The position numbers and the translations under genes were made by a program. DNA of 64,000 bases from an uncultured bacterium (GTDB taxonomy: Bacteria; Babelota; Babeliae; Babelales; Vermiphilaceae), in NCBI GenBank assembly GCA_963695335.1, contig OY968764.1:992001-1056000 (forward strand). Direction: 5' to 3'. Below, piece after piece: positions 17,857 through 60,418 of this stretch. The notes beneath the pieces are model-generated. The model made no database searches, was not told the origin of the DNA, and saw nothing but the letters and a program-made list of their open reading frames with translations. Position 1 is the stretch's first letter; each line of letters begins with the position of its first letter.

Positions 17857-19395
17857 TTATAATAAAGAACTATCAACCTGTGTAATTAATTTTTGAGCAA
17901 ATTCCGATAATGGATATTGATAAACATGAGACAGTTCCACTGTTTCTTTGCAACTATCATATAGCGATAAAACTGTTAAAGCATTATCAGTATTTAAATA
18001 CGTTTCATCGGTAGTTTTTATCGTTATAAAACCAGTTTCTATACTTTTGTATAATACTTTTCTCAATTCATCTAATGTGGTAACGCATTCACCATTAACC
18101 TCATTAATAGTGTCAGCCCAACGAATTGTTTTTATATGTTCAACTTTAGATCCTGAAATAAGATTTGCAATAACAAGGCGTGGTCCATTATCATGAAGAT
18201 TCGTCAAATATCGCGCTAAACCAGGCTTATCTTTAGAATATGCTTTAATATAATTTACTGTTAATGGCATAATAACCATGCCCGCAAACACTTCATAATC
18301 TATTTTTTCATAAGGAGGATATTTTGTACTAATATTATTATCATCCAGTAAATCAATAGTAACAGGAATATCCAATGATACTCCATTACGCCATACACTA
18401 AAATTAACTTCTGCCCCTAAAGGAAGCATCACTATATATTCATAAAATGATATTTTACTACTACCAGGCAAAACAATTATTTCGGCATAATTATCTATAA
18501 AATAACCATTAACCGCAGAAATAATATCCCCTATTCGCAATCCAGCGACATAACCTTTTTTTAAAGGATCAAGATCACATATCAAACAACCATTTACATC
18601 TGTATTACCAAAATAGCTTCTGATTTCCTGATTAGTCGGCTCCCATACCATCCCAAAATCACTATTTATTTTTAATAATTTATGATCATAGAGATCAGAT
18701 AATGATGATTTTAAAACATTAATAGGAACAGCAAAATTAGTACCTTGTGCCTCTTTATTTCCTCCTCTATGAATTCCAATAACCATCCCTTTTTTATTAA
18801 ATACAGGACCACCCGAATTGCCTGGATTCGTTGCAATATCATACTGTAAATATCGATAAAGATGAGCACTTACAACTCCAGAAGTAGCCTTAAGCTCTTT
18901 TGCTGCCAAGGGATATCCCAATGACAAAACTTCTTCTCCGCTTCGTATCTCGTCTGAATCACCTAATTGAAGATATGGTATTTGATTAAATTCTTTATGA
19001 ATTACACTGAGAGACTCTTGCGTAAAGCGTAATAATGCTATGTCACGCTCTGGGCATATCCCGATAACATCAACTTTAAAACGTTGCTTGCCAAATGCTG
19101 CCATAGAAATAAAAACTGCTAATGCATCTTCAACAACATGAGAACATGTTACGATATCGCCAGTGCTGTTAATGATAAAGCCTGTTCCACAGGTATTTTT
19201 AGTGTTATTTACACAATATGGATTAGACCAATTAACATCTCTTGATGTAACAAAAATTTGAACTACTGCATCACGTGCAGCTACTTGAACTTCTTGCCAT
19301 GTTTGATCGGCAATAGCAGATTCCTGCATACATTGCATGGAACAAGAACTGAATACACTCAACAAAATTGCGGCATATATTTTTTTATATAACAT
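17857..19395 (-). CDS. HtrA/DegP-like serine protease with PDZ domains (tandem paralog)
   Basis: TCSHVV, RDIALL, PGNSGGP; colinear with the 16054-17592 protein, both 512 aa. Confidence 0.9.
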   Translation of the reverse strand: MLYKKIYAAILLSVFSSCSMQCMQESAIADQTWQEVQVAARDAVVQIFVTSRDVNWSNPYCVNNTKNTCGTGFIINSTGDIVTCSHVVEDALAVFISMAAFGKQRFKVDVIGICPERDIALLRFTQESLSVIHKEFNQIPYLQLGDSDEIRSGEEVLSLGYPLAAKELKATSGVVSAHLYRYLQYDIATNPGNSGGPVFNKKGMVIGIHRGGNKEAQGTNFAVPINVLKSSLSDLYDHKLLKINSDFGMVWEPTNQEIRSYFGNTDVNGCLICDLDPLKKGYVAGLRIGDIISAVNGYFIDNYAEIIVLPGSSKISFYEYIVMLPLGAEVNFSVWRNGVSLDIPVTIDLLDDNNISTKYPPYEKIDYEVFAGMVIMPLTVNYIKAYSKDKPGLARYLTNLHDNGPRLVIANLISGSKVEHIKTIRWADTINEVNGECVTTLDELRKVLYKSIETGFITIKTTDETYLNTDNALTVLSLYDSCKETVELSHVYQYPLSEFAQKLITQVDSSLL

Positions 19396-19452
19396 GTTTG
19401 TATAACCTCCATTGTATATGTTATTTTATTTTTATAGCCTCAATTAAAACTC

Positions 19453-19617
19453 TTATTTTTTATTTTTTTTAACCACAACATGACTTTTTTGAAACACAGA
19501 ATGTTGTTTACCGTACAACAATGAAGCAAAACCTTGATACAATAATCCCCCTACTACTAACGCAGTAAACGTACTTAACACAAATTCATCTCTTTTAGAA
19601 AAAAATCTACTTTTCAT
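19453..19617 (-). CDS. Possible 54-aa small membrane protein
   Basis: Hand-translated MKSRFFSKRDEFVLSTFTALVVGGLLYQGFASLLYGKQHSVFQKSHVVVKKNKK; aagggg RBS-like sequence upstream. Confidence 0.4.
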   Translation of the reverse strand: MKSRFFSKRDEFVLSTFTALVVGGLLYQGFASLLYGKQHSVFQKSHVVVKKNKK

Positions 19618-19685
19618 TCATGGCCCCTTCCACAACATTGTTTTAGTTAACTTTTTTATAATACCTAATCGAAATGAAATTTTAA

Positions 19686-21089
19686 TTAATCAAAGTCGGC
19701 TGTATCCTCAAATTTAGTAAGTTCTCTAATAAAGTTCATATACACCGTTCCTGTTGGCCCATTACGCTGCTTGCCGATAATAAGCTCCGCCAATGCAGGG
19801 TTTTCTGTTTCTGGATTATATACAACATCACGATATAAAAACATAATCACATCAGCATCTTGTTCTATCGCTCCTGATTCTCGCAAATCAGAAAGCATGG
19901 GGCGTTTATCCATACGACTATCAACAGCACGTGAAAGCTGTGATAATGCAATGATTGGAATATTAAGTTCTTTTGCTAATGCTTTAAGTGATCGGGAAAT
20001 ATCAGAAACCTCTTGATGGCGATTTTCATGTTTTTTATTGGAATGTAACAGCTGCAAATAATCTATAACTAAGAATTGTAACCCATGCTCAGCTTTTAAC
20101 TTACGTGCTTTTGCTCGTAAATCCATAATATTAAGCATTGCTGTATCATCAATAAACACTTTCATTTCAGCAAGCTGTGCCGCAACATTCGTTAGATCAA
20201 TCCACTCATCAGATGAGATAGTTGCGTTACGAATATTATGATGACCAATACCAGATTCCGCTGAAAGTAAACGGAGCGTCAGCTGCTCAGCTGACATTTC
20301 AAGGGAAAACACACCAACAGAAAACCCACTGCGTGCTGCCGTTAAAGCAACACCCAAAGCAAGCGCCGTTTTACCCATTGATGGACGTGCTGCAAGCACA
20401 ATAAAATCGCTGTTTTGAAAACCAGAAGTCATTTGATCAAGTTGGGAGAATCCTGAAGGGACACCTGTTATGCCCTTCATATGACTTTTTATATCAGAAA
20501 GATGCTGGAATGTTTTCTTTAACCAGATATCAAGCTGAATAAAACTATTGCTTGATCTTTTGTTGGCAATATTAAAAATAACTTTTTCTGCATCATCAAG
20601 AACAGCATCTATTGAACTCTGATCTTGTGTATAACAGTTAGTAATGATTGTTGCGGCAGAACTAATAAGCTGCCGCAACACTGATTTTTCTTTGATAATA
20701 GTAGCATGTTGAACAATCAAACCAACCGATGGTATATCTTCTTGTAAACTCACCAGATAGATAATACCTCCAGCTGCATCTAACAAATCTTTTTTGGTCA
20801 GTTCGTCTTGAAGTGTAACAATATCAATACGTTTATGTTTCTGACCTAAATCAACAATTGCCTGATAAATAATTTTGTGTGCAGGATTATAGAAATCATC
20901 GGGAACAATAATTTCTGAAACAGTTGTAATGTATTCATCATTCAATAACAATGCTCCCAAAACAGCTCGCTCCGCATCAACATGCGCAGGAAGTGTTTTT
21001 CCCAGAATGCCTTCTACATTCTGTTTTTTTGCTACAACGGAATTATTATTATAATGACTGTTTTTACTCATATATCTATTCAGATACAA
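19686..21089 (-). CDS. dnaB: Replicative DNA helicase
   Basis: AERAVLGALL, AARPSMGKT, IDYLQL, LSQLSR, SDLRESGAIEQDAD, KQRNGP. Confidence 0.97.
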   Translation of the reverse strand: MYLNRYMSKNSHYNNNSVVAKKQNVEGILGKTLPAHVDAERAVLGALLLNDEYITTVSEIIVPDDFYNPAHKIIYQAIVDLGQKHKRIDIVTLQDELTKKDLLDAAGGIIYLVSLQEDIPSVGLIVQHATIIKEKSVLRQLISSAATIITNCYTQDQSSIDAVLDDAEKVIFNIANKRSSNSFIQLDIWLKKTFQHLSDIKSHMKGITGVPSGFSQLDQMTSGFQNSDFIVLAARPSMGKTALALGVALTAARSGFSVGVFSLEMSAEQLTLRLLSAESGIGHHNIRNATISSDEWIDLTNVAAQLAEMKVFIDDTAMLNIMDLRAKARKLKAEHGLQFLVIDYLQLLHSNKKHENRHQEVSDISRSLKALAKELNIPIIALSQLSRAVDSRMDKRPMLSDLRESGAIEQDADVIMFLYRDVVYNPETENPALAELIIGKQRNGPTGTVYMNFIRELTKFEDTADFD

Positions 21090-24626: not shown

Positions 24627-24971
24627 TTAGTATCGTTGTCCAAATGTCTGTCCAGCCTGTTGTATCTCTTCAATACTATAAAATCCACGGTGACGTAATA
24701 TATCCAATTTATCCAATTGTGCTTGAAAATTATCCCTGTGCATTTTTGCGTTTTCAATCAGATAAGATTTAGTCTCTGATGGCATTGATTCATTTTTTTG
24801 TGTTGAGTTCATTACGCCTTGCCAATAATCTCTACCCTTAGCGCTTATATCTCTTTGTGTGTTTAAGAAAGACTGCATTCTCTGTTCCTGCGTTTGCATC
24901 CCATTCATTTGACTGAATGTTGCAACGACCAAAATCATACTCAAACTTAATAATAGTTTGATGTTTTTCAT
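24627..24971 (-). CDS. Small secreted hypothetical protein
   Basis: aagggg RBS; signal peptide ending ...QMNG/MQTQE. Confidence 0.7.
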   Translation of the reverse strand: MKNIKLLLSLSMILVVATFSQMNGMQTQEQRMQSFLNTQRDISAKGRDYWQGVMNSTQKNESMPSETKSYLIENAKMHRDNFQAQLDKLDILRHRGFYSIEEIQQAGQTFGQRY

Positions 24972-25662: not shown

Positions 25663-26166
25663 ATGTACAAACAATTACTCTCTTTACTAATATTTTTTTG
25701 TTTGCAAATATCATGCATGGAAAAGGAATCCAAGTCTGTTTTTGAACAATTAGATAAAGATCGTCTATCCGTTATTACAGGATATTGCAATCTTCAAACA
25801 ATAGGACGATTAAAACAAATTTCTAAGCATCACAACAATATGATCAATATTGATGTGATTTTAAATAATACTACATCAGTTGCGTATTGCGAATTGGGAA
25901 AAAATGAAAAATACGCCGCTTGCACCAAGGCATTAAAACACTATGAACAAGAATATCATACCAACAAAAACCATGCTCAAATATTTAAAAACTTATTAAA
26001 ACATTGTCATCAACGCAGAAAAAAAGAAACACAGGAATTCATAAAATCTCATGGTTTGAGAATGGGACTCTCAAGAAGAGCTCCTTGTAGTCGCTATGAA
26101 TTATGGATAAAAGTTATCAATGAAAACAATCAAGATGAAGCACAATCTATAATATCTAAGTCATAA
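25663..26166 (+). CDS. Secreted protein with F-box-like motif
   Basis: Signal ...LQISC/MEKE; FEQLDKDRLSVITGYCNLQTIGRLKQISKHHN follows F-box spacing. Confidence 0.6.
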   Translation: MYKQLLSLLIFFCLQISCMEKESKSVFEQLDKDRLSVITGYCNLQTIGRLKQISKHHNNMINIDVILNNTTSVAYCELGKNEKYAACTKALKHYEQEYHTNKNHAQIFKNLLKHCHQRRKKETQEFIKSHGLRMGLSRRAPCSRYELWIKVINENNQDEAQSIISKS

Positions 26167-26199
26167 GAAAAGGCCTGCAGTCGCAGGCCCTTCTTTTAT
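26162..26199. terminator. Bidirectional terminator abutting the ileS stop
   Basis: aaaaggcctgc-agtc-gcaggcccttctttt. Confidence 0.8.
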
Positions 26200-29126
26200 C
26201 CGTAAATTATTCTGTGACATCGATTACATAAATCATCAGGATCGCTGCTCAAATCCCACTGCCAACAACGAGGACACTTAACCCCTTGCGCGTGTTCAAC
26301 ACGTGCAAACAGACCTTTTAATTCTGTTTCTTCAAGATTTGTTGCATCTGATGTGATTGTGCATTGCGAAACAATTAAACACTCTTTTAAAAAGCTTTCA
26401 GCGCTTTCACCTTTTACATTCATCATTGCAAAGAAATTGTTTATTGTATCAGCAAAGTCAGCTTGAGGATCAATATATAATGTAATCTGAGCTTCTAATG
26501 AATGCTTAATTAACCCTTTTTCGCGTTGAACTTCAATAGCTTTAAGCAACGCCGAGCGCATATCTTTTAATATCTCCCAAGCATCTTCTTGGCTATGCCT
26601 CAATTCAACTTCTCCCATCTTCTGTGTTGCTGCATAATGTTGACCACGATGATGCAATGGTTGCATATCTTGTGCAGATACACGCTGAGCTAACAACTCC
26701 CAAACATTATGTACAAGAGGAAATTTCTGCAGATGAATTGAATCAGTTTTACCTTTTTGATATTCATCGGAAAGTTGTTCCGCCGTGAATGATAAAATAG
26801 GTGCTATCAATTTAGTCAGTGTATCAAGAATATGTGCACACACTGTTTGCGCAGATCGGCGTTCAAAACCATCTTTCTTTTCTACATACAATCTATCTTT
26901 AACAATATCTAAATAAAATGCACTTAAATTAACTGCGCAGTAACTTCCAAGTAGATGCGACACACGTGTAAAATTATAATTCTCATATGCATGCATAACT
27001 TCCTCATAAATCTCAAAAAGTTCTTGCATCGCATACTGATCAATTGATTTCATTTTTTCTACTACAATTGCATCTTTAGCGATATCAAAATCATTAATAT
27101 TGGAAATAAGAAAGCGGCAGGTGTTGCGAATTTTACGAAACACTTCTTGCACGTTTTTAAGTAATATTTCTGAAACAACTGCGTCACCACTGATTATCAA
27201 TGCTCGCTGCCCACAAACGCAAACCATCTGTACCAAGATGCTCGATCATTTCTTCTGGTGAAACAACATTCCCCAAAGATTTGGACATTTTTCGACCTTG
27301 TTGCATCAACAGTAAACCCATGCGTTACAATTGTTTTCATGCAGGGAGTTTCTTCAATGATCATACTTGTCAGCAAAGAACTTTGAAACCATCCACGATG
27401 TTGATCTTTACCTTCAAGATACATATCTGCAGGATATTGCAACGCAGGATTTTGTTTTAAAACTGCATAATGGCTAATGCCTGAATCAAACCATACATCA
27501 AGAATATCTGTCTCTTTGCGTAAATCCACCAGTTGTGCATGCAGGACATGTTGTAGAAACATTGAGTTCATTCACATGTCACCTTATCCCAATATTCAAT
27601 ACCTTGCTGTGCAACTTTTGTAGCAACTTCATCAATAAATTCTTGATTAATATAGGTATAATCACATGTATTACAAATTAATGCGGTAATTGGCACACCC
27701 CATTCACGCTGCCGAGAAAGACACCACTCCAAACGCCCTTCAATGGTTGCTGCAAAACGGTTATGTGATGCTTCTGGAAGCATGGTAATACTTGAGATAG
27801 CTGCAAGTTGCTTTTTCTTTAAGATCATTTTTTTCTAAATCACAAAACCATTGTTTAGTTGCACGGAAAATTAATCCATTATGACAACGCCAACAATGAG
27901 GATATGAATGCTTGATGCTTGCTTTTAAAAGTAACGTATTGCAATCCATCAGTTTTTGAATGACCCAACCTTGTCCATCCGCAACAGACATTCCAACTAA
28001 TTCCGGAATAGTAATATCTTTGGTATATTTCCCATCAGGACTGATTGGTGAATAAATTTCCAAACCATTTTTTACTCCAACTTCATAATCAATAGGTCCA
28101 ACTCCAGGCGCAGCAATGCACGCATGCAGTACCATCATCAGTCAGTACAGAATCATCAACTAAAACCGGTGTATAAAAATCAGGAATAAATGGATGATGC
28201 AACATATGCATTTAACAAGATCAATTCTTCTGAATTAAATTCTGCAACAATATTATCTGAAATAGTAAGCAATTGAGAAATTGCATCAGCACGCTCTTTA
28301 CCAACAACAATATAATTGTTTTCTGTTTCAAGAATTACATATGTTGTCATTTGGTTTAAGTAAAACCGCTCTATTGAGCGGCAAAGTCCATGGCGTTGTT
28401 GTCCATACTAACAAACTGATTGGTTTATTTTGCAATGTTGGAAACAGTTCTTGAGAAACATCAGATTCTAAGTGTAAACAGCACATACAAAGAAGGATCT
28501 TTACGATCTTGATATTCAATTTCAGCAGATGCAAAAACGGTCTGACATGAAGGGCACCAAGGACGGTTTTATTTTTACGTTCGATATATCCGCGCTCTAC
28601 AAATATCCCAAAAGCATTAAGAGTATGCGCTTCATACCCAGCATCCATGGTCAAATATGGATTATCCCAATCCATTAATACACCAAGTTGCTTAAATTCT
28701 TGTCGTTGCACATCAATCCATTTTTGAGCATATTGCGCGCATGCTTTTTTAAGCGCAGCACCAGTAAAGTTCTGGATTTTCTTTGCTACCTTAAATTCAA
28801 TCGGCAACCCATGGCAATCCCAACCTGGAGTTACTGGCACATGTTTGCCCATCATGCGCTGCGATTTGCAGACAATATCTTTTAAAATTTTATTATAGGC
28901 ATGCCCAATATGAATATGCCCATTGGCATAGGGAGGACCATCATGAAGAATAAATTTTTCTGCACCCTTGTGGGCATTAAAAGAACGTGGTATAAAGATT
29001 TTCATGTTCCCAGCGCTTGAGCATAAGCGCATCATCTTCTTTATGATTGGCACGAATAGGAAAATCGGTATGAGGTAAATTTAGGGTATCTTTAAAACTC
29101 TTTTTCTGATTATTTTGTTCAGCCAT
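26196..29126 (-). pseudogene. ileS: Isoleucine-tRNA ligase broken by many frameshifts (probably sequence errors)
   Basis: [16 protein letters not shown] start; [46 protein letters not shown] in an alternate frame; C-terminal CPRCW..CNRC. Spread over at least five ORF fragments. Confidence 0.93.
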
Positions 29127-30069: not shown

Positions 30070-31485
30070 ATGAAAAAACTATATATTTTATTCTTTATGA
30101 TGTTTATTTGTAACAATACACCAACTTTTAGCATGAAACGTCTTCCAGAAGAAACTATTGAACAAGGTCATGAAAAAAAGGTTAAAATTCAGCCAACTCT
30201 GATATATCCATTAAGCAATGGGCAATTCATTGAACTTAACAAAGACGCTGTTCTTTTGTGCGATCAGTTGATTAATTTATTAGATTACTCACAGGAAGAT
30301 TACAATCTATTATTCCCAGGAATAGATGTTAATCAGATTCCTTATAAACTTGATTTAACAGATGATGAAGTCATTCTTCTATTTAATATTCTTAATACAA
30401 TAACACAATCTGCTCGTTCTTTTACTGATCAAAAGTCACAAAAATGTTATTACCTTAACCAGGATGTTTTTGAGATAACCTTTAATATATGTAAAGAGAG
30501 GAATGCTCTCACTACTGACATTTTAATAAAAATGATAGGCGCCTGTGATTTTTTAATATGTAACACTCTACTTAATACTTTCACCAAAATATTTGTAGAT
30601 AAATCAAAAGAATTAACAGTAAATCATACGTATAATTTTGCAGATTTTCCCGAAAATAGCGCATCATTTTTTAGAAAACATCTTAAAAGAAAAACGCTTG
30701 GGATTAAACTGAATACATATATTCCTGAATGTAACATCATTGACTATATAATTCTTACTAATGGGCTTTTACCCATAATAAACAACCAAATTATTTTAAA
30801 TGGTCTGCCAATAGCAAAATTAACAAGCCTTGATGGCTTGGAAATGGTAGCACACAATATAAATGCATCATTCATAGTTGCGATACATTTAGGTGATAAT
30901 TATCTTACCTTAACTAGCAATTTTATTAGTTTGCAAAACTTTCCAAATGTGTCAGTACTTAATCTCAGCAATAATCAATTCATCCAACTACCGGAAAATA
31001 TTTTTAATAAACTTGATCAGTTACAGGCATTATATCTCAACCATAATCAATTAATTCAATTATCAAAGAATATCTTTAATAATCTTGTTCAACTAAACGA
31101 GTTAGGATTAGACAACAATTCATTAGTTGAATTACCAGAAAATATTTTTAATAGTCTTACTGCTCTAACAGATTTATATCTCAACAATAATCAATTAACT
31201 CAATTATCAAAGAATATCTTTAATAATCTTCACCAGCTGCAACTATTATATCTTGATCATAATAAATTGATAACACTACCAGAGAATATTTTTAATAACC
31301 TTCACCTGTTGCAATTATTACATCTTGATCACAACAAACTAACCACACTACCGGAGAATATCTTTAACAATCTTGCTCAACTGCAAGAATTATCTCTTGA
31401 TAATAATCCATTCGTTTCTTTGCCAGAAAAAATAGTACAGTTGTTATATTGGTTGAACCCAGAATTGAATCCAGAAGAAGATTAG
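30070..31485 (+). CDS. Secreted leucine-rich-repeat protein with Skp1/BTB-like N-terminal domain
   Basis: Start at 30070 after aagga; 24-aa LRRs LxLxxNxLxxLPENIFNxL; LIKMIGACDFLICNTLL resembles the Skp1/BTB AAxYL motif. Confidence 0.85.
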   Translation: MKKLYILFFMMFICNNTPTFSMKRLPEETIEQGHEKKVKIQPTLIYPLSNGQFIELNKDAVLLCDQLINLLDYSQEDYNLLFPGIDVNQIPYKLDLTDDEVILLFNILNTITQSARSFTDQKSQKCYYLNQDVFEITFNICKERNALTTDILIKMIGACDFLICNTLLNTFTKIFVDKSKELTVNHTYNFADFPENSASFFRKHLKRKTLGIKLNTYIPECNIIDYIILTNGLLPIINNQIILNGLPIAKLTSLDGLEMVAHNINASFIVAIHLGDNYLTLTSNFISLQNFPNVSVLNLSNNQFIQLPENIFNKLDQLQALYLNHNQLIQLSKNIFNNLVQLNELGLDNNSLVELPENIFNSLTALTDLYLNNNQLTQLSKNIFNNLHQLQLLYLDHNKLITLPENIFNNLHLLQLLHLDHNKLTTLPENIFNNLAQLQELSLDNNPFVSLPEKIVQLLYWLNPELNPEED

Positions 31486-31750: not shown

Positions 31751-32059
31751 ATGAAAAACACAAAAATATCATTAATCAATGGTTTGATGCTGACCATAAC
31801 GCTATTTACAACAATACAAATATCCACAATGGCACCAGAAATAAATCCTTATCTTAACGATTATCAACGAGGTCTTCTTGAAAGCTATATGAAAGAGGAT
31901 AGAAAATTCATTGAAAACGAACTGAAATTAGAAAGAGAGAAGGAAGGATACAAACCATTTTGGATACCGAAAATGAAAAAACATCTAAAAGATGTTGAAT
32001 CATTGTATTTTGGTAATAGACCAGTAACAAGACAAGATTTAAATTTATTACAAAGATAA
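31751..32059 (+). CDS. Small secreted hypothetical protein, possibly continuing to 32298 through frameshifts
   Basis: aagggg RBS; signal ...IQIST/MAPE; related sequence downstream in broken frames. Confidence 0.6.
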   Translation: MKNTKISLINGLMLTITLFTTIQISTMAPEINPYLNDYQRGLLESYMKEDRKFIENELKLEREKEGYKPFWIPKMKKHLKDVESLYFGNRPVTRQDLNLLQR

Positions 32060-33489: not shown

Positions 33490-36489
33490 TTATTCCCGTG
33501 CCAATCGCTCTTGCGCATCATTCACGATTTCTTGTTGAAGCTGTTCTTTTATAATCTGTGTTGATGTTTTTGCACCCGCATCTACAAGAATTTTTCGTTG
33601 TTGTTCAAGCGATCCACCCCACCGGTTTTTTCCTGCTCTATCAAAAGCATCTAAAGGAGTTTCTTGTTTACCATTAAGAATGTTAACATCAGCACCATAT
33701 TGTATTAATAATTTAAGTATATTTTCCCTTAAAAAATTGATGCTAAATTCAAAAATTGGATACGTAAGCTTAGAATTATACAGATAAGCAACATTAGGGT
33801 TAGCTCCATGCTTTAATAAAAATTCTACCATTTTGACATTATTCTCACTTAAAGCAAGACCCAATGGGGTTATATCCTCATACCGCAAATATTTAAAAGG
33901 CGTATCTACAGAAACTCCACTCGAGATCAGCAATTCAATAAGTGCTGCATTATTCAAGCGTATTGCGCAATAAAGCGGCGTAGTAGAAGTTGTATCAATT
34001 GGTTTAATGGTAGCATTTCCAGTAATATCAGCCCCATCAGCAATACATTTTTTTGCTATAAAAATAAGATCAATATTTTTGCGAATCTGTTGATAATATT
34101 CTAACAGCTTTCTCTTCGCCTCATGCTCTTGACTATAACGATCCCGTGCGGCTCTTGAGTCAGCAAAATAGCCCGATGGAGCTCTTGGCCAATCTATACG
34201 GGGTGTAGGCTCAGTTAAAATCATATATAAAAGATCAGCAAAAAACTTTTTTTTGTATGAGACATCGGTAATGCACTCATACAATGTTAATACAAAATTA
34301 GTATTGAACAGAGGAATATTTATAGTCATTTTCAATATATCTTGAATAAATTGTTGTTTTAATAGATCATCAGAAAATTGTGTATATAACTCCTTAATAA
34401 AATCAGTTAATTGTTCATACAATTTTATTCTGAAGCTATCATTTCTAAGGTTTCTAAATACAGTTTTTGCCAATACCACATTAATCAATGTTTGTTTTGA
34501 TACATTATCAGGCAACTCTCGATATAAGTCTTTGATAAAATCAACAGTTTTTTCATCAGACAATTCCGTTAATGCTATATCTAAAGCAGTGCTCCAATAA
34601 CGCACCACCAAATTTTTCAATCTTGTATCTGTACGCCATAAACCTAATATTATTCCACCATTTATCATAGCTGTTGCAACCGGGCCACCTTGCCAATTAA
34701 GTGGCATTTGTTGATATAAACTCAATGCATAATCCAATGCTTCTTGATTGATATTGTTCATACTCATAATTTTCTTAATGACATCAAATCTTTGAGAATC
34801 AGTTTCTGTCGGGAATGCATAAAACAACGATATTGACGGTTGATATTGTGGATAAGTAGAAAAGAGCGCAGATAAATTTGGCTGAATTCTAAATAATGCT
34901 TGCGCCTCTGCATTTATTCTATAATTGTGTGCCAATTCTTCAGGTGTAAATAATGACTTTTGTTGAGCCCCTTGCTTATCTCTCTGTGGAACCTCAAGCC
35001 AACCGTGACCAGGATGAAAACAAAAATCTGCCTGTAATCGTTGACCTGTTTTCCTATTATTTATATTCATAGTAATTTTTGAAAAGGAATTATTACCCGT
35101 TACTATTACTATTGGTCCTGTAAATGTTATTGTTCTTCGTTCATCAGAAAGCATTGTGCCTAATTCACCCAGATTGTGGGCCTTAATTCCAAAAAAATGA
35201 TTTGCTAATGTTACAAAATTTTTTACACTCATGGCAGCATTCAATTCATAATCACCTCTGACATACCCTACTCCTTCAACACCTGAAACCAGATTCATAA
35301 AAGCTTGCCCACATTCTCGTGTATTAATTTTACTTGCGCTACTATACGTAGTATAAAATTGTTTAAAATCATTATTCAGCGAAAAATTTGATGGTAAGAA
35401 TGTCAGATCAAATGATTGTGACGATGGATTGTACAACATAATATTAAGCAAATCTTGGAGTGCCGTTTCAACACAATTTGGAGCAGGACTTTTATCTTTA
35501 TATCCATATGATGATTGAATAACTTTAGGAGCATATAATGATGTACTTCTTTTCTCATTCAACATGGCACTGACAACTAACTCAAAGTGTGTTGTTGCAG
35601 CTTTCTGCAACACTTCTTTTCGAGGAGTAACTTCCCATGCATGGCGCACAACATCATAATCTTTTTGCGTATACGTAGCACTTTCGCGAATAATATATTT
35701 CTTAACAAAAGATTTTAACCTATCAAAAAAAGTCGGCTCTGTTTTTTCTAAACCTTTTTTTTGCTCAGTATAATGCTGCACTGCCTGAGCCACTGGCTCA
35801 TGAGTTTCTACAAACACTTGCATGAATTCACTAAGCCCCGCAAGATAATGTATCATATCGTGATCATTATCAGGAATTGCCTTTGCATACAAAAAACCGA
35901 GTAAAATTCTACGACAACTATCTTTATCATTTTTATATTCATTTTCGATAAGCGTTAACAATTTTTCTATTTTTCCTCTTGGAAAAGGCCTTTTTTCATC
36001 CGTAATTCTTCTGTATTCATCAAGCCACTGATTAATGATATAATCACGCACTTTTTGTTCTTGTAATCTACCCGACTCTAAAGCGCCTATCACAAGACCT
36101 ATTATTTCTGGCGACAATGAATATGCAGCTTTTGATTTGCTTGCCGTTGGCCTGAATTGCGGTCCCTGCTTATAAAAAAGTTCTTGTACAAGTTGTGGCC
36201 CAAAAGCCTCTGATTCCGTTTCATATCTTTTTTGAATTGCACCTGTCTCTAATTCTATCGCCCCAATTACCGGAGAAACCTCCTGTGCTTTTGACGTAAG
36301 CCCTTCATATAATCCTTTAATCTTTTCAGGAGCATAAATTGTACGTTTTTGCTGAATCCCAGTTTTCACTGGTGTTGTTGTAGTAGTAAATACCGGTCTC
36401 TTAGAAGTTTGTTTTAATCGCATTCCCTGTAATGATACAGGTATAATAAACAGACTGAAAAGAATCAACAAAACATTAGTTTTCTTCAC
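33490..36489 (-). CDS. 999-aa secreted ankyrin-repeat protein
   Basis: GTG start after agggggtt RBS; signal peptide; C-terminal TPLYCAI, TPLGLAL, LLKHGANPN, YGADVN..ETPLD ankyrin repeats. Confidence 0.85.
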   Translation of the reverse strand: MKKTNVLLILFSLFIIPVSLQGMRLKQTSKRPVFTTTTTPVKTGIQQKRTIYAPEKIKGLYEGLTSKAQEVSPVIGAIELETGAIQKRYETESEAFGPQLVQELFYKQGPQFRPTASKSKAAYSLSPEIIGLVIGALESGRLQEQKVRDYIINQWLDEYRRITDEKRPFPRGKIEKLLTLIENEYKNDKDSCRRILLGFLYAKAIPDNDHDMIHYLAGLSEFMQVFVETHEPVAQAVQHYTEQKKGLEKTEPTFFDRLKSFVKKYIIRESATYTQKDYDVVRHAWEVTPRKEVLQKAATTHFELVVSAMLNEKRSTSLYAPKVIQSSYGYKDKSPAPNCVETALQDLLNIMLYNPSSQSFDLTFLPSNFSLNNDFKQFYTTYSSASKINTRECGQAFMNLVSGVEGVGYVRGDYELNAAMSVKNFVTLANHFFGIKAHNLGELGTMLSDERRTITFTGPIVIVTGNNSFSKITMNINNRKTGQRLQADFCFHPGHGWLEVPQRDKQGAQQKSLFTPEELAHNYRINAEAQALFRIQPNLSALFSTYPQYQPSISLFYAFPTETDSQRFDVIKKIMSMNNINQEALDYALSLYQQMPLNWQGGPVATAMINGGIILGLWRTDTRLKNLVVRYWSTALDIALTELSDEKTVDFIKDLYRELPDNVSKQTLINVVLAKTVFRNLRNDSFRIKLYEQLTDFIKELYTQFSDDLLKQQFIQDILKMTINIPLFNTNFVLTLYECITDVSYKKKFFADLLYMILTEPTPRIDWPRAPSGYFADSRAARDRYSQEHEAKRKLLEYYQQIRKNIDLIFIAKKCIADGADITGNATIKPIDTTSTTPLYCAIRLNNAALIELLISSGVSVDTPFKYLRYEDITPLGLALSENNVKMVEFLLKHGANPNVAYLYNSKLTYPIFEFSINFLRENILKLLIQYGADVNILNGKQETPLDAFDRAGKNRWGGSLEQQRKILVDAGAKTSTQIIKEQLQQEIVNDAQERLARE

Positions 36490-36624: not shown

Positions 36625-37659
36625 TTATTCTCTATGGCTCTCATATTCATAAGCATATGAACGGTTCAAATCAACAATCATATCTGCCCGTTTTTTTGCT
36701 TCCATTGGAGTCATCGTCTTTTTTGCTACCAAATTTTTTGTCACATCAGGATGATTCTCTAATAAAAATTTATTACGAGCTATTTTTACTTGAGCATCTG
36801 ATGCACTTTCTGGCAAACCAAGTATTTTTTTTGTTTGAGATCCTTTTATTGAAGATGTAGAAGACGATTGCTGCTGTCCAGACTTTTGATACTGTTGTTG
36901 TTTCCATTGTTGATACTGCTGCTGTCTAGACTGTTGATATTGCTGTTGATACTGTTGTTGCTTCCATTGCTCTTGTTGTTGCTGTTGCTGTTGCTCTTGT
37001 TGATACCACTGTTTTTTTTCCCGATCCTTTTTGAAGCGTTCTATACGTTCGTTAAGAGAAAAAAGAAAAGGATATTCCTGCATTATTGTATTGTAATCTA
37101 TATTTCCACGCATACTATCTATCTTATGAATATAATTAATAAGCGCATCAAGAAATCTACTTCTTTCAGTGTCTTTGTTTTCTTCAAGCCATATAAAACA
37201 TCTATTCAAAAGCGCCATAGCGTATATATAAATATCAGTTTTATATCCTAAAAGGGATTGTAAATTAAAAGATCTCATTTCACTGATCAATTTCTCCAAA
37301 GCTTTATCTTTTTCTTGTTTTTCATAATATTTACTACATATTATTTTTTCCCAGCCATCTAAAAGATTTCTAAAAGGCAAAAGTGTCGAATCTTTTCGAT
37401 TATAATCATAATAAGCTTGAGTAAATGGAATAAGTGCAGTCAAAGATCGCGCACTAGGTGAAACATACTTCCTCCAACTAACATCCCCAGACTTTTCAAA
37501 TGCTACTCTTATTCTCACACCAGTCAGGCTCCGCTGAAATGAGGGCATCGTCCAAGCTCTTTTAGGTACATTTCTGGCTTTAGTCAACATACCATGCAAC
37601 GGAAATAAACTACTCAATACCATCAAAAAAGTTAATAAGCGTCTATTTAAAGTTGTCAT
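36625..37659 (-). CDS. Secreted protein with polyglutamine tract and C-terminal J-domain
   Basis: KILGLPESASDAQVKIARNKFLLENHPD...DLNRSY J-domain with HPD; Q-rich linker. Confidence 0.8.
   Translation of the reverse strand: MTTLNRRLLTFLMVLSSLFPLHGMLTKARNVPKRAWTMPSFQRSLTGVRIRVAFEKSGDVSWRKYVSPSARSLTALIPFTQAYYDYNRKDSTLLPFRNLLDGWEKIICSKYYEKQEKDKALEKLISEMRSFNLQSLLGYKTDIYIYAMALLNRCFIWLEENKDTERSRFLDALINYIHKIDSMRGNIDYNTIMQEYPFLFSLNERIERFKKDREKKQWYQQEQQQQQQQEQWKQQQYQQQYQQSRQQQYQQWKQQQYQKSGQQQSSSTSSIKGSQTKKILGLPESASDAQVKIARNKFLLENHPDVTKNLVAKKTMTPMEAKKRADMIVDLNRSYAYEYESHRE
36868..37010 (-). repeat. CAA/CAG-rich polyglutamine-coding tract
   Basis: Encodes YQQEQQQQQQQEQWKQQQYQQQYQQSRQQQYQQWKQQQYQKSGQQQ. 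Confidence 0.9.
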
Positions 37660-38617: not shown

Positions 38618-38962
38618 ATGCAAAAATTACAACTCAATCGCATAACTTTTTTATTCATATTTTTACTAGCACATCACGCTGCAATACATACTATGCAAAA
38701 TAATAAACGGCAGAACAGAACAAAAAATCTCCCTCAGCCGAAAAAAAACCATACCGGAGGAAAAATTACAAACGAACTCAGAAGTCAAAACCTCACAGAT
38801 CGTTTAATGCATCGTTTTCTTACAGAATTACCAAAAGCACCAATAGACAAGATTAAACCTGCACCAGAGACATCTGCACCTGCATCTGATACAAACGCCC
38901 TATTATATAACTACAATTATCCTATGCATCATGATTTCGATTTAGAATGGATTGAAAAATAA
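38618..38962 (+). CDS. Small secreted hypothetical protein
   Basis: Signal ...AAIHT/MQNNKR; terminator follows at about 38963-38987. Confidence 0.65.
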   Translation: MQKLQLNRITFLFIFLLAHHAAIHTMQNNKRQNRTKNLPQPKKNHTGGKITNELRSQNLTDRLMHRFLTELPKAPIDKIKPAPETSAPASDTNALLYNYNYPMHHDFDLEWIEK

Positions 38963-40321: not shown

Positions 40322-40726
40322 ATGAAAAAAATAAACTATTTCATCATTTTTTTATGCTCTTTTGTATCACAAACAGTATCTATATATGCTATGGAAAGAC
40401 AGAATTGTAAATCCCCACATCAAATTCTTACAGAAAATCTATTAGACATGCACATCAAACTGCAAATACCTATCTCTCTTATACATCAGTCAACTATAAT
40501 CAGTTACCCATGTTATATATATGGCGAACGTATAGAACCAAACATACAACTCAATCCGCAAAATAGTCTGTATGAATGCCCCTTATGCAATCGCAGTTTT
40601 ACTCAAAAAAAATTAATCTTGCATATAAAAGCTACCAACATCAAACCCCTATACAATGTCCCATTGAATGGATGTGATTATGCAGAGATAGATGATGCAT
40701 ATTTTTTAGAATGGATCAATCAATGA
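40322..40726 (+). CDS. Secreted protein with one degenerate C2H2-like finger
   Basis: Signal ...SIYA/MERQ; YECPLCNRSFTQKKLILHIK; stop overlaps next start (ATGA). Confidence 0.65.
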   Translation: MKKINYFIIFLCSFVSQTVSIYAMERQNCKSPHQILTENLLDMHIKLQIPISLIHQSTIISYPCYIYGERIEPNIQLNPQNSLYECPLCNRSFTQKKLILHIKATNIKPLYNVPLNGCDYAEIDDAYFLEWINQ

Positions 40727-41406
40727 AAAACAATAGATTAATCAGACCATTTTTTTTATTATTACTTTTTGTATCACTCCAGCACAATCGTATAAACACA
40801 ATGCAAATAGATACGATAAATAATGTACAAAAAAAATATATATGTCTTTATTGCCCCAAAGGATTTAATCAAAAAGGTCATGTCCTAGAACATGAACGCA
40901 CACATACTGGTGAAAAGCCATTTCCATGCACAAAATGCCCCAAACGATTTACTCAAAAAAATCAACTCACAAAACACGAACAAATGCATCATGAAATGCC
41001 ATATGCATGCACAAAATGTACGAGACGTTTTGCTCAACAAAACGATCTGATTGAACACGAATCTATACACTTTAAAGAAAAACCATTTAGTTGCACTACT
41101 TGTAAAAAAAGTTTTACGAACAAGAGCAATCTCACAGTGCACGAATGGACACATACTGGCGAAAGATCATTTCCATGTATATGGTGTGACAAAAGTTTTA
41201 CTCAGAAAGGCCATCTCACAAAACATATACAAAAATTACACCCTAACAAAAAACCATACACCTGCATTATATGTCATGAAAGCTTTTCTCTCAAAGCTCT
41301 ACTTACTGCCCACAAAAAAAGCCACGTTAAATCTAACTCTGTATATAAACCAATAGAACTTTTATTTGAAAGCCATGATCATGGATATATGTTACATAAC
41401 AGTTAA
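40723..41406 (+). CDS. Secreted eukaryotic-type tandem C2H2 zinc-finger protein (six fingers)
   Basis: CxxC-x12-HxxxH repeats with HTGEKPF and HTGERSF linkers; N-terminal signal peptide. Confidence 0.92.
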   Translation: MKNNRLIRPFFLLLLFVSLQHNRINTMQIDTINNVQKKYICLYCPKGFNQKGHVLEHERTHTGEKPFPCTKCPKRFTQKNQLTKHEQMHHEMPYACTKCTRRFAQQNDLIEHESIHFKEKPFSCTTCKKSFTNKSNLTVHEWTHTGERSFPCIWCDKSFTQKGHLTKHIQKLHPNKKPYTCIICHESFSLKALLTAHKKSHVKSNSVYKPIELLFESHDHGYMLHNS

Positions 41407-46495: not shown

Positions 46496-46945
46496 ATGGC
46501 ACTCAAAAAAACTGCAAAACGTAAACCAACTGCAAAAAAAGCCACACCAAAGCGCAAAGTAACAAAAAAAGTTACTGCAAAAAAATCTGTTGCTAAAAAA
46601 GTAGTAAAAAAAGCTGTTACTAAGAAAGCAAAACCTGCTGTTAAAAAAGCTGCTCCAAAACGTAAAGTTGCTAAGAAAGCAAAACCTGCAGCCAAAAAAG
46701 CAAAACCGGCTGCAAAACCTAAAAAACGAGTTGCAAAAAAAAGCAGCGTAAAACCTGCAGCCAAAGCTAGAAAATACAGTCCTTTAGCAGGAAAAGAAGT
46801 AGAAAAAGAGATGCACAAATTTAAAGAAGGAACTGCTAAATCAGGTAAAGCTGGAACACCGGTAGAATCACGTGAACAGGCAATTGCAATTGGTTTATCA
46901 GAAGCGCGTAAAAAAGGTGAAAAAGTTCCAAAAAAACGTAAATAA
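46496..46945 (+). CDS. Histone H1-like Lys/Ala-rich protein with DUF6496-like C-terminus
   Basis: aaggag RBS; KKAKPAAKK repeats; EMHKFKEG..KSG..VESREQAIAIGLSEARKKG. Confidence 0.85.
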   Translation: MALKKTAKRKPTAKKATPKRKVTKKVTAKKSVAKKVVKKAVTKKAKPAVKKAAPKRKVAKKAKPAAKKAKPAAKPKKRVAKKSSVKPAAKARKYSPLAGKEVEKEMHKFKEGTAKSGKAGTPVESREQAIAIGLSEARKKGEKVPKKRK

Positions 46946-50675: not shown

Positions 50676-53231
50676 ATGAAATCTACAAAAATGATCCATT
50701 CACTGCTTCTATCTGCACTTTCATTCTGCGCAATTATTCAAGCAGATGCTACTCAGCCCACGGCAAATACCGAAAATAGCGAACCTAGTAAACAAGAAAT
50801 GACGTTAACGCCAGTCCAACAGGCAGAATTAATGAAAATTATCGAGTTTGCAGAAAATGCTATCACTAAATCATTCAGTTCCTTACAAAAAATTGAAAAC
50901 ACACTCACAGAAGTTGCCCTTTTAGTCAGAAAAGGCACCTTACAACTTCCGGTGACTGAACTACAAAATATCATGGCTGTCATTACAGAAAATAAAATGA
51001 TAGTTAATGCATTGCTCAAAAGCCAATCAGAAATAGCAGAACTGCAAGACCCTGCAATGTATTTGGAATACGCTCATCTTATTACAGAATTCTGTAATAG
51101 TTTTATTCCTTATTTTAATAATCACATAAAAAACAATTTTAAAGATGCAAAACCATTCGATCTGAAACATTTTGTAACAGATCTTAATAAAGATAAAAAA
51201 AGATCAAAAGGCAGCCATCTTAAACCAGAAGTATTAAAAGAAGGTCTTAAAAAAACAAAATCTGAACTTTCTGCATTACATCACACGGTAAAAAATATCG
51301 GCCTTACTCACTACAATAAATTTTTCCGTAAAATTGATGAATATATCGTTACTCCTGCAAATAAATGGCATGTACCAACAATTGCATACTATGGTACGGG
51401 AGCTACTCTTTTAAGTGTTTATTTGTTATTACATTTTGGAAATATCTCCGAAACAAATCCTAATCTATTACCATCACTTAACACACTATTACAAAAACTA
51501 AAATCATGGGCTGGTTCTTGGCCTCTTATTGATACTCCAATGGGACCTAGACTACCAAACAATTCTTCACAAAATCCATACGCAACTGAAGGAATAGTTC
51601 CAACAGATGCAAGTTTATTCATTACAACAGATTATGCTATCAATCGATTAATGGGGAGTGGGATACCCCTTGCAACATTTGCGATACAACATTTTTATAC
51701 CTCATTCTCAGAAACATGGAGAAATGACATCTATCCAAAAATAGCTGAAAAAAGAGATGATGTCTGGAATTATTTACGTGGTGGTGAATATCGCAAAAAT
51801 CGTAGAATGGGATTAACTGAGATCAACTCAACGCGTACATTTAAAGATATGGTTGGCCTTGATGAAATTAAAGAAGCATTCTCACAAATTATTCAATACA
51901 TTGACAACCCTGAACAATTGATGCGCCTTGATGCAACTCCAGAAAAAGGATGGTTACTCACAGGACCAACCCGTACTGGTAAATCATTCAGCGTTGAATG
52001 TCTTTCTGGGGAAATAAAACAGATCATGGCCAAACGCGGTAGAGCTAACACCATGAGATTTTTTAGTATCGATTCTTTCTTGATTAATAAATTGGGTATT
52101 AAAGATATTCTAGAACAAATACAAGAAGTTGCACCTGCGGTGATCTTTATTGATGAAATTGATCTGCTTGGATTGAACCGTGTTGGTAATAACCAACTTT
52201 TAAGTGAATTTTTAACATCAATGCAAAGTTCTATGAACGCAGACCCATCTAAAATAGTAATCGTTATTGCAGCAACAAATAATCCAGAAAATATTGATAA
52301 AGCATTACGTCAACCTGGTCGATTTGGTAAAGAGATCCGCTTTGAATATCCATCACGTAAAGATCGTATGACGTTTATTAAACGTGAACTTGAATCTATG
52401 GCAATTGATCTTTCACAATTTGATCTTGAAGCTCTTGTCGATAAAACAAATCAAAAATCTTTTGAAGCGTTGAAACAAGTTATTCTTGGGGCTATGGCTA
52501 AAACTTGGTTTAATGAAGAACCATTAACACAACAAGCACTCGAACGTAGTATCGATAGAGAAATCCATCATATTATTCCATTCAGCCGCAAAGATCTTCC
52601 TGAAAGTGAACTGCGCATTATTGCAACACACTTTGCAGGCAGAGCGATCGCTACAATGTTACTTGAAACACATGACAAACTTGATAAGATAACCATACAT
52701 GCGCATATGCCTGATCTTAAAAATGAAATGGTATGGGATACACTTGCAAAGAAAGATGAAAAAGATCATCAGCAAAAAATTGAATATGGTTACCTTGCAA
52801 CCAAACAACCATATGATTCAATCAACATGAAAACTGAAAGTGTTATTATTAATGAAGCGATCACGCTCATTGCTGGTTTTGCTGCTGAAGAACTTTTACT
52901 CAACTCACGCGGTTTCACATGCCACCCTCAAAGTCATGATCGTGCATTTAAAATAATTACTGATCTGGTATTTGGTGGTCTTAATCAAGACAGCTTGCCA
53001 AAAGCTATCAATCAACAATTAAAGCTACAGGCGTATAACATGCTCAAGAAATGTCATGAAGATGCTATGCAATTATTGCGAATTCATAAAGATGCGTTGG
53101 TTGCTTTAACTGATGAGCTTATGAAAAAACAAATTATGACTGATAAAGAGGTACAAGCTGTTATTGATAAGGCTGAAGGTAAAATTGTTGAAAAGCCTAC
53201 GGCTGATACGACTGAAGAAGCTACTGTGTAA
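50676..53231 (+). CDS. FtsH-like AAA+ ATPase with degenerate M41 protease domain
   Basis: GPTRTGKS Walker A, IFIDEID Walker B, AATNNPENIDKALRQPGRF; HFAGR in place of HEAGH; AGFAAEELL. Confidence 0.88.
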   Translation: MKSTKMIHSLLLSALSFCAIIQADATQPTANTENSEPSKQEMTLTPVQQAELMKIIEFAENAITKSFSSLQKIENTLTEVALLVRKGTLQLPVTELQNIMAVITENKMIVNALLKSQSEIAELQDPAMYLEYAHLITEFCNSFIPYFNNHIKNNFKDAKPFDLKHFVTDLNKDKKRSKGSHLKPEVLKEGLKKTKSELSALHHTVKNIGLTHYNKFFRKIDEYIVTPANKWHVPTIAYYGTGATLLSVYLLLHFGNISETNPNLLPSLNTLLQKLKSWAGSWPLIDTPMGPRLPNNSSQNPYATEGIVPTDASLFITTDYAINRLMGSGIPLATFAIQHFYTSFSETWRNDIYPKIAEKRDDVWNYLRGGEYRKNRRMGLTEINSTRTFKDMVGLDEIKEAFSQIIQYIDNPEQLMRLDATPEKGWLLTGPTRTGKSFSVECLSGEIKQIMAKRGRANTMRFFSIDSFLINKLGIKDILEQIQEVAPAVIFIDEIDLLGLNRVGNNQLLSEFLTSMQSSMNADPSKIVIVIAATNNPENIDKALRQPGRFGKEIRFEYPSRKDRMTFIKRELESMAIDLSQFDLEALVDKTNQKSFEALKQVILGAMAKTWFNEEPLTQQALERSIDREIHHIIPFSRKDLPESELRIIATHFAGRAIATMLLETHDKLDKITIHAHMPDLKNEMVWDTLAKKDEKDHQQKIEYGYLATKQPYDSINMKTESVIINEAITLIAGFAAEELLLNSRGFTCHPQSHDRAFKIITDLVFGGLNQDSLPKAINQQLKLQAYNMLKKCHEDAMQLLRIHKDALVALTDELMKKQIMTDKEVQAVIDKAEGKIVEKPTADTTEEATV

Positions 53232-57779: not shown

Positions 57780-58088
57780 AACTACTCCTTCTCGACACCT
57801 TTTTTACTACTACTCTCTCCCAACATACCCCACCTTACCCGTAACTGCAACTACTCTCAAATAGCTCCAATACATCGTATCATACCTCACTTTCCTAAAA
57901 CAATAATCCCCTTCCAATCGTTCAAATTAAGGAAAAAAAAGCCGGAAATAGTCACCAACCCTACCTTTCCCGTGACAATATTTTCTAATATGATAAAATA
58001 ATAAATAGAAAGAGTTAGAAAAGCTCTTTTTTTTAAGTTATTGTAACGTAGTAATAAAGTATGACGATCTATAAAATAGATATAAAAA

Positions 58089-59153: not shown

Positions 59154-59179
59154 TAGAATCTATTCCAATCTAATTTGCA

Positions 59180-59301
59180 CCCTTCGATACACCCCTACGG
59201 GGCACTTAGGGCGAGCGGACTGGATAAAAAATTAAAGATCTACATATTACATTTCTTCCGCTCGCCCTGAGTGTTTTTGCTTGCAAAAATGTATCGAAGG
59301 G
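59180..59301. repeat. REP pair, long variant with internal hairpins
   Basis: cccttcgataca[cccctacgggg]cacttagggcgagcgg and ccgctcgccctgagtg[tttttgcttgcaaaaa]tgtatcgaaggg. Confidence 0.85.
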
Positions 59302-59422
59302 TATGCGTTAAAAAAATAAAAAAAACCTAAAAACGCCGTGTCTACGGGACCTGTTGCTGGTTTTTTCAATTTGAATTACAATTAATAATAATGAGAAAGA
59401 ACCTTAAAAAAGGGTATAAATT

Positions 59423-60418
59423 ATGAAAATACGTACTATTTTCCTACCAATCGTATTTTTTTGTGTTACAGGCATGCAAAGCACTCTGAGCATGAATATG
59501 GCAATTACAGTCGCAAAAGGAGCAGTAAGTGGTCTCTGTTCAACAGCAGAAATAATGATGACTTGCGCGCCATTGCTTGATAAATGCTTATTAAATCCTG
59601 CTGATCGTCAAGCAGAAAAGCTAAAAAATACACAATCTAACGCTCCAGAATCTGTTACTCATTTTGTTACAAAGATAGCACACTCAAGAGGCATTAATAA
59701 TGTTAAAGTTGTTCTTGCTGGTGATGCGCATGACTATAGCACCAACGACAATGGCAATATTATCTTCATCCCAAACAAACAAGCTCAAGAGCTTACAACA
59801 TTACTTGGCAAATCAACCTTAACATCTGAAGAACAAGAACAACTGAATGAACATACTGGTACGTTGCATCATGAACTAACTCATGGTACTATGCGTAGTC
59901 TTAAATACGCTCCCATGTATGATGCTGCTATTGGAACAGCTGGAGCTCTATCATTATCTACTGCACTAACACGCTTTACGCATAAATATTATCCAAGCAT
60001 TCAGCAAAACTTTGCTTTACGCAACGCTTTTAAACTTACACGTGGTGCGTTAGTACTACCTTTTGCTGTTAATTTGATGAACATGAATTTTTACAAAAAA
60101 TATGATGAGTTAAAAGCTGATGATGGCATACCTAATGAAAAAGATTTGCTTATAGCGCAAATAAAAAGACATGAAAAACGTCATGATATACATTTACACT
60201 ATGTAGATGTTATTAAAGAACGTGCATCATTTGGTAATATTATTTCACCACCTGAAGGAAATGATTTCACTAGACCTCAACTCTTTGCCATGAAAACGCT
60301 TCCTAAAAGCTTATTTAATAAGCCAATTGTCATGGATGCCGTCTTTCATGCAAATACAGAACATCCAAGTGATTTACGACGTGCTAATAGATTTAAAGAT
60401 AGACTGGCAAAGCTATAA
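59423..60418 (+). CDS. Secreted M48-like zinc metallopeptidase
   Basis: HHELTH, ELKAD, HPSDLRRA motifs. Confidence 0.7.
   Translation: MKIRTIFLPIVFFCVTGMQSTLSMNMAITVAKGAVSGLCSTAEIMMTCAPLLDKCLLNPADRQAEKLKNTQSNAPESVTHFVTKIAHSRGINNVKVVLAGDAHDYSTNDNGNIIFIPNKQAQELTTLLGKSTLTSEEQEQLNEHTGTLHHELTHGTMRSLKYAPMYDAAIGTAGALSLSTALTRFTHKYYPSIQQNFALRNAFKLTRGALVLPFAVNLMNMNFYKKYDELKADDGIPNEKDLLIAQIKRHEKRHDIHLHYVDVIKERASFGNIISPPEGNDFTRPQLFAMKTLPKSLFNKPIVMDAVFHANTEHPSDLRRANRFKDRLAKL

Follow-up and report, generated by a model that had tools for sequence, protein, structure and literature searches.

A 64,000-nucleotide stretch of the genome of an uncultured bacterium of the Vermiphilaceae (Babelota; assembly GCA_963695335.1, contig OY968764.1, positions 992001-1056000), referred to here as the window, encodes a series of proteins with Sec-type leaders in which the predicted cleavage site is followed directly by methionine. 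The arrangement recurs throughout the genome (code G000; 1.37 Mb, one contig, 35.7% GC), and the pattern is real, genome-wide and far above chance. The observation is solid, and the Met, for which any function is putative, marks effector-like cargo. Some 200 exported and mostly host-directed-looking proteins have this strongly conserved Met after the predicted cut, and it probably gives them a host-like start. The Babelota (Dependentiae) are described as parasites living inside protist cells (PMC6561590, PMC4378268, PMC4776705), and ADP/ATP translocases are carried by 40 of the 41 genomes in our set of relatives.

Altogether 1321 open reading frames (ORFs) were called in G000. Leader-like starts are present in 620, and 549 of these lack an additional membrane segment, by rules which ignore the +1 residue. 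All cut sites are predictions by home-made rules, which let in some false leaders and false Met calls (a pilin, ZnuA, Ugd and window ORF 29779). One caller is blind to the mature protein, applying a -3/-1 rule to upstream residues only. It assigned a site in 486 leaders and placed Met at +1 in 141 of them, against a background Met frequency of 1.9%; Gln occupies this position in only 18. Elsewhere between -8 and +11, Met occurs in 0-34 of the 486 leaders at any one offset, -1 and -3 being constrained by the rule itself. Non-endosymbiont control loci, taken from other phyla, partly as unspecific matches to a Cytomitobacter probe and with one TM6 locus left out, have +1 Met in 1 of 108 leaders (0/62 and 1/46). 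A small residue (A, S, G, C or T) occupies -1 in front of 287 of the 395 Mets that fall within the cleavage zone, versus 1960 of 6193 other positions, and the site consensus is [L/I/T/S/V/A]-[H/F/L/S/Y/N]-[A/S/G/C/T]↓M-E-x-E, the arrow marking the predicted cut. A second caller, a matrix built from positions -13 to -1 of 125 Met-Glu leaders, recovers the site in 108 of these when they are left out and places Met at +1 in 88 of the remaining 424 proteins. The matrix is biased towards leaders resembling its training set, and the -3/-1 caller is the independent one. Proteins with a matrix call and Met, or with a rule call and E, D, Q, K or N at +2, make up a Met set of 217 proteins in 146 families by BLAST of the mature parts.

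Since the residue in question is Met, the +1 ATG might be an internal start, from which an additional product without leader would be made and remain in the bacterial cytoplasm. The single copy of GalU, which has both leader and Met, would suit such an arrangement. A Shine-Dalgarno core, however, precedes 107 of the 217 leader starts and none of the 217 +1 ATGs; GTG and TTG are not in excess at +1, and the residues upstream match the -3/-1 peptidase pattern. An internal start is extremely unlikely and was rejected. A special signal peptidase behind the Met rule was likewise discarded, just one signal peptidase I (a single PF10502 hit) having been found in G000.

The distribution of +1 Met among cargo classes is highly uneven. 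Pfam was searched with the first 600 aa of all 549 leader proteins (E <=1e-5), and the classes were assigned by hand. Met follows the predicted cut in 42 of 55 eukaryote-like proteins (exported proteins with ankyrin, WD40, LRR, C2H2, DnaJ or PP2C domains), in 168 of 373 orphans lacking a Pfam hit and in 6 of 76 other enzymes. It is found in 1 of 34 envelope proteins, the sole case being an HtrA protease in the window, and in none of 11 collagen or S74 surface proteins. Counted by family majority, the contrast is 14 of 19 eukaryote-like families against 0 of 29 envelope and surface families (p 2e-8), although it is somewhat inflated, as the envelope class takes in membrane anchors and lipoproteins, which are not signal peptidase I substrates. 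A preliminary description of the window, made from its sequence alone, had proposed exactly this enrichment of effector-like over ordinary secreted proteins, and at 42/55 versus 1/45 proteins it is borne out. The rate in the envelope and surface proteins is at the background of the control loci and not below it. Thirteen of the 55 eukaryote-like proteins lack Met by automatic call, nine when judged by eye, their mature parts starting mostly with S, A, T or H. Most proteins of the Met set (168/217) belong to the orphans. An F-box-like start motif is present in 13 of the 217, as opposed to 3 of 332 others, PF12937 giving weak hits, below the cut-off, in 2 of 16 segments. Among the Met proteins are also additional, exported copies of cytosolic-type enzymes; one of these, Tmk, has a leaderless paralogue.

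Nine proteins with leader and Met have one predicted membrane segment, in two cases at the extreme C-terminus as in a tail anchor, and are candidate host-membrane proteins (G000:C1 334593, 342547, 343325, 352580, 353339, 438554, 496009, 819615 and 1205028). CaaX-like ends occur in four Met proteins (G000:C1 7581, 363842, 922345 and 1185172) out of 217 and in none of 137 non-Met proteins, too few to weigh. Leaders also stand on cytosolic-type enzymes, among them adjacent PyrF and PyrD/PyrE-like fusion genes (G000:C1 230353 and 232001, minus strand), Ugd, GalU, PpsA, myo-inositol oxygenase (MIOX) and an ATP-dependent DNA ligase (G000:C1 274665, 1126799, 1078537, 1131184 and 1168736). A tblastn search for PyrF, PyrD/E, Ugd, GalU and MIOX finds no second copy in the genome. 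Such leaders may reflect exported metabolism or misread starts.

The Met is conserved beyond its surroundings. A 400 kb sample of a congener (G005) has +1 Met in 38 of 140 blind calls and gave 112 reciprocal best hits with G000, of which 79 pass the site filter. Where the +1 residue is Met, 36 of 39 of these pairs retain it. The -1 residue is retained in 85%, compared with 31-59% (about 45% on the whole) for other flanking positions and 79 of 146 for other Mets within the first 100 residues of the mature part. Non-Met +1 residues are kept in 27 of 40 (p 0.01), though these proteins are more conserved overall. To judge from the aligned sequences, the +1 Met is under selection. The +2 residue, by contrast, swaps among E, K, Q, L, T, V and D.

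This conservation bears on the idea that the Met is a functionless by-product, either because a leader was fused in front of an existing ATG or because leader and ATG were copied as one cassette. Leaders do move between genes as a piece that ends with the Met. In 24 cross-family pairs of neighbours, against a mean of 9 and a maximum of 16 in the null, no fewer than 8 of 15 leader positions are identical although the cargo is unrelated or fast-diverged, and Met genes are clustered on the chromosome (350 vs null 286). In tandem arrays at G000:C1 680001-684979 and 737697-740077 the leader is common up to the Met whilst the cargo differs, with WD40 beside ankyrin, which suggests leader reuse. The Met is nevertheless retained while the leader drifts, cross-family leader identity averages only 14%, and the +1 residue switches between Met and non-Met in the otherwise conserved MIOX and HtrA. 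Exported Tmk reads MEPEK-MQLTRGIL after its leader and the leaderless paralogue starts MPYLRKGIL; the ancestral start thus corresponds to a position five residues after the +1 Met, which is therefore not simply the old start codon. In GalU another Met follows four residues after the first. Met retention and the Tmk alignment largely refute hitch-hiking or a relic start as the sole cause, and as an account of the pattern it is improbable.

The pattern is also present in relatives, a check that the preliminary description had proposed. The Met fraction in blind calls is 10/34 in the same genus, 14/67 in the same family and 7/96 across seven other families, and twelve DnaB loci assigned to Babelota from their identity have +1 Met in 12 of 57 leaders. 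Two loci filed as Pseudomonadota (L197 and L245), with DnaB 63-65% identical to the window's and several translocases, are probably Babelota. Outside the phylum, Met follows 5 of 13 leaders in ~110 kb of Candidatus Nesciobacter abundans, a protist endosymbiont of the Holosporaceae (Alphaproteobacteria; p 4e-5 vs controls, uncorrected for tandem copies), the five being located at three loci. All its Met proteins are orphans, with no homologue among the Babelota loci sampled. The survey of Holosporales-type genomes is small (~110 kb of Nesciobacter and 20-60 kb of others), and convergence with Nesciobacter is a lead only. A degenerate scan of genome contigs for a leader followed by AME was rich in Babelota (at least 9 of the 80 loci, by title or DnaB identity), with no other endosymbiont lineage among the matches listed, and a Bodocaedibacter probe gave no match. 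In one sampled relative of Nesciobacter (G123), a LOG/SLOG-family enzyme has a leader followed by Met-Asp (L399:16262-16969, minus strand), resembling the exported cytosolic-type enzymes of G000.

The residues following the Met offer a clue to its purpose. Methionine aminopeptidase (MetAP) is a cytosolic enzyme and does not act in the periplasm. A small residue at +2 would make the Met sensitive to it, and such residues occur in 9 of 192 Met leaders versus 45 of 137 non-Met leaders, and in 9 of 68 versus 45 of 112 when Glu is left out. Glu occupies +2 in 124 of the 192 against 25 of the 137, and is also enriched at +4. MetAP strips Met before small residues and leaves it before large ones (PMC8037982). 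Because MetAP-sensitive +2 residues are avoided, because the enzyme is cytosolic and because an unrelated endosymbiont shares the pattern, a reading on the host side is favoured: Sec export and cleavage would create a retained-Met, host-like N-terminus, and the lineage would follow a Met-at-P1-prime rule for host-directed proteins. We regard this as evenly poised between right and wrong. The preliminary description had likewise suggested a host-like start, and that half of its proposal gains indirect support.

On this host-side reading, ordinary Sec leaders would be cut after a small residue by the single signal peptidase I, and the predicted cut would expose Met, typically as the observed Met-Glu-x-Glu. 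The two-secretin type II system could then carry the proteins out of the periplasm, or they could leave it in outer-membrane vesicles; the machinery is present, and either route is a candidate. In the protist cytosol, Met followed by a large residue would remain uncleaved by MetAP and resemble the start of a normal host protein. Going by N-degron rules, it would also avoid the bulky, basic or acidic first residues which are often left by signal-peptide cleavage and read by N-degron pathways. Selection for a host-like start would keep the Met. Leader and Met are also passed on together when genes duplicate in tandem or fuse, as neighbouring genes and Tmk show, and new cargo acquired in this way helps the Met to spread. 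The further proposal that acetylation by NatB is the reason for the Met finds no support. The +2 residue fits the NatB pattern (D, E, N or Q) in 145 of 192 leaders, yet it is exchanged for K, L, T or V in best-hit pairs, and D is rare (8/192). ME, MQ or MN starts, claimed for the window as NatB substrates, hold for only 7 of its 12 examples. Co-translational acetylation by NatB may in any case not apply to a Met exposed by bacterial cleavage.

Several observations weigh against a host-side explanation. S, A, T, G, V and P are not favoured at +1 in non-Met exported proteins (orphans 36/89, enzymes 15/35, envelope and surface 7/14; controls ~44%). There is thus no general taste for stabilising +1 residues and the preference is specific to Met, which a sorting tag explains more directly. 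The Glu at +2 and +4 is motif-like. The Met is absent from many enzymes that have a leader and depend on cofactors of the cytosol, while the sole GalU copy has both leader and Met. Four Babelota families show no case (0/14, 0/13, 0/7 and 0/8) in samples of 40-60 kb. The five Nesciobacter cases amount to only three loci and two of them are Met-Pro, from which MetAP would cut the Met; the sampled kin are mostly without the pattern (G094 0/5, G097 0/1, G107 0/4, G109 0/9 and G123 1/6). A Cardinium plasmid, reached via an ankyrin search of plasmids, has Met after 0 of 11 leaders. The cut sites, N-termini and host location of the Met proteins are themselves predicted. The specificity for Met could be reconciled with the host side if A, S, G or T at +1 acted as a new -1 residue, which Met cannot do, and so moved the cut until Glu, Lys or Gln came first.

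The main rival is that a free N-terminal Met(-Glu-x-Glu) serves in the periplasm as a sorting tag, by which the two-secretin type II system or a chaperone selects cargo for a second export step; a sorting mark of this kind is the other half of the proposal in the preliminary description. Besides the choice of Met rather than any stabilising residue and the enrichment of Glu at +2 and +4, the secretion machinery itself would accord with a tag. G000 has a gspC-gspD-pilM/gspL-like-gspD cluster at G000:C1 319600-328150 (L097-L098), with two long secretins of about 810-845 aa, and at least two secretins are found in 61 of 61 Babelota genomes, in agreement with PMC4776705. Nesciobacter likewise gives two secretin hits. 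A TolC-family protein, sought as an alternative second step, has no match in G000. The gain of Met by one of two tandem HtrA paralogues also fits a tag. Against this, the envelope proteins are at background, with no sign of active exclusion; Met is missing from the eukaryote-like exceptions noted above; the +2 residue is exchangeable; nine Met leaders stand before a predicted membrane segment; and the receptor is only putative. Known type II systems, moreover, recognise folded cargo. A tag is possible, although it is the less probable reading. The two readings are not mutually exclusive, and it is attractive to consider a two-stage code for about 200 effectors per genome, in which Met(-Glu-x-Glu) would be both a linear address for the two-secretin system and a disguise within the host. 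One or more protist endosymbionts among the Alphaproteobacteria would then have arrived at such a code on their own. This combination is speculative and rather doubtful.

The closest known system is the Q-rule of the Bacteroidetes (PMC5837995, PMC10653852). In both cases the substrates of Sec and signal peptidase I have a lineage-typical P1-prime residue, seen as a genome-wide enrichment. The Bacteroidetes residue is Gln, is found in every compartment and accounts for over 60% of leaders in the published description, whereas the residue in G000 is Met, is confined to eukaryote-like and orphan cargo and follows about 30-40% of leaders. The present rule is unusual as a cargo-specific P1-prime rule. 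The comparison raises the prospect that the Met protects exported proteins on the bacterial side, being modified or resistant to aminopeptidases in the periplasm or vacuole, for which the Gln that is cyclised and stabilises exported proteins in Bacteroidetes would be a precedent (PMC10653852). The Q-rule, however, spans all compartments (PMC5837995), and the periplasmic and outer-membrane proteins here are without Met. The modifying enzyme is only hypothetical; M24 peptidases were the only candidate Met-acting enzymes checked, and neither of the two in the genome is within the leader set. Protection of this kind is very unlikely.

Other systems offer partial parallels. The leaders resemble classical Sec/signal peptidase I leaders (PMC9360617) in their basic n-region, hydrophobic core, small -1 residue and length of mostly 18-24 residues, but differ in that +1 Met reaches 29% against ~1% at control loci, -3 is often L, I or T instead of Ala, and -2 is often H, F, Y or N. 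Chlamydia trachomatis exports CPAF, CT311, CT795 and HtrA through Sec followed by type II secretion or vesicles, and this set, like ours, has cleaved leaders and includes an HtrA (PMC6717882). The chlamydial substrates have been detected in host cytosol, the predicted destination of the Babelota proteins. The chlamydial set is a handful as compared with ~200 candidates here, a +1 rule is not mentioned in the available text, and Chlamydia relies mainly on type III secretion. Within the phylum, leader-bearing ankyrin proteins of the same class have been described in Babela (PMC4378268) and Chromulinavorax (PMC6561590). In Chromulinavorax 44% of proteins have leaders, comparable to 549 of 1321 here, and vesicles have been reported (PMC6561590); in Babela, type II was the only secretion system detected (PMC4378268). 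The accounts of both organisms, as far as their text is available, are silent on the residue after the cut, the word methionine occurring 0 times in the Babela main text. The eukaryotic MetAP and N-degron rules are alike in that Met is kept before large residues and that exposed degrons are read in the cytosol, as in the BiP example (PMC8037982), with the difference that Met here would arise from bacterial proteolysis and not from host translation. No description of a Met rule at +1 was found in literature on Dependentiae/Babelota, N-end-rule effectors, type II secretion, Holosporales or the Q-rule, supplements (the Babela and Bodocaedibacter signal-peptide tables) and subscription journals lying outside the search.

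We know of no effector signal for the Babelota, in which about 40% of genes specify exported, mostly unrecognisable proteins. A one-residue rule separating host-directed from envelope cargo would serve as an effector predictor, here for 168 orphans, and also as an aid to correcting gene starts. As a single substitution suffices, both the shaping of Sec-exported effectors by host N-degron and MetAP rules and the reading of a linear N-terminal tag by type II secretion become testable.

In the window itself, all 12 Sec-type leaders with a following Met listed in the preliminary description are present in the sequence. The cut sites fared less uniformly: 9 of the 11 in the automatic set match at least one upstream-only caller (40723 with a low score), 24971 and 40322 are matched by neither, and 31751, outside that set, was judged by eye only. 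The Met is kept in G005 at 30070, 38438, 40723 and 59423. The first example, MQC↓MQES (19327-19395, minus strand; Met codon 19329-19327), was offered as an effector and is in fact an HtrA/DegP-type protease (17857-19395). An alternative cut, SCS↓MQC, also gives Met, and a lipobox-like reading is possible. The protease is 51% identical to its tandem neighbour without Met (16054-17592, minus strand), an internal control, cited as envelope-type in the preliminary description, in which ACA↓QE aligns with MQC↓MQE of the former (site ACA↓QEA). The closest G005 homologue of both also lacks Met; the Met has thus arisen recently, in one HtrA duplicate.

Among the remaining leaders, those on proteins with recognisable domains are TFS↓MKRL (30070-30135, plus strand) of an LRR protein (30070-31485) and LQG↓MRLK (36421-36489, minus strand, GTG start) of a 999-aa ankyrin protein (33490-36489), for both of which Pfam agrees with the earlier assignment. 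INT↓MQID (40723-40803, plus strand) precedes a multi-C2H2 zinc-finger protein (40723-41406) with a Pfam match; the C2H2 assignment is weak for IYA↓MERQ (40322-40393, plus strand), a 134-aa protein with a single zinc finger. A J-domain claimed for the 344-aa protein (36625-37659) behind LHG↓MLTK (37588-37659, minus strand) gives only a weak Pfam match (E 0.002, under the cut-off), its site being called automatically. The F-box claimed for the 167-aa orphan (25663-26166) behind ISC↓MEKE (25663-25719, plus strand) found no match in Pfam or atlas searches and is unconfirmed. The other orphans follow MNG↓MQTQ (24897-24971, minus strand; 114 aa, 24627-24971), IST↓MAPE (31751-31831, plus strand; 102 aa), VYA↓MEPF (38367-38438, minus strand; 260 aa, 37656-38438), IHT↓MQNN (38618-38695, plus strand; 114 aa, site called automatically) and TLS↓MNMA (59423-59494, plus strand; 331 aa).

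Leaders without Met provide controls by Pfam assignment. Three large surface-type proteins with Peptidase_S74 tails (3555-15371, strand unassigned) have LTA↓NET, LLA↓ERR and MQA↓ITK, and an AAA/peptidase M41 protein (50676-53231, plus strand), which is no clear envelope protein, has IQA↓DAT. The region 92-15371 holds four large proteins with C-terminal Peptidase_S74 domains, likely trimeric surface fibres, with collagen-repeat relatives elsewhere in the genome. An isoleucyl-tRNA-synthetase-like gene at 26196-29053 (minus strand) is broken into at least five ORFs and a PpsA paralogue at G000:C1 1141739-1144117 is likewise in pieces. Assembly indels are the probable cause in both cases, and some of the short orphans may therefore be pieces of longer genes. 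A tyrosine integrase (39287-40213, minus strand) adjoins the pair of zinc-finger genes as well as other orphans with leader and Met, and a Lys/Ala-rich histone-like protein with DUF6496 is encoded at 46496-46945 (plus strand).

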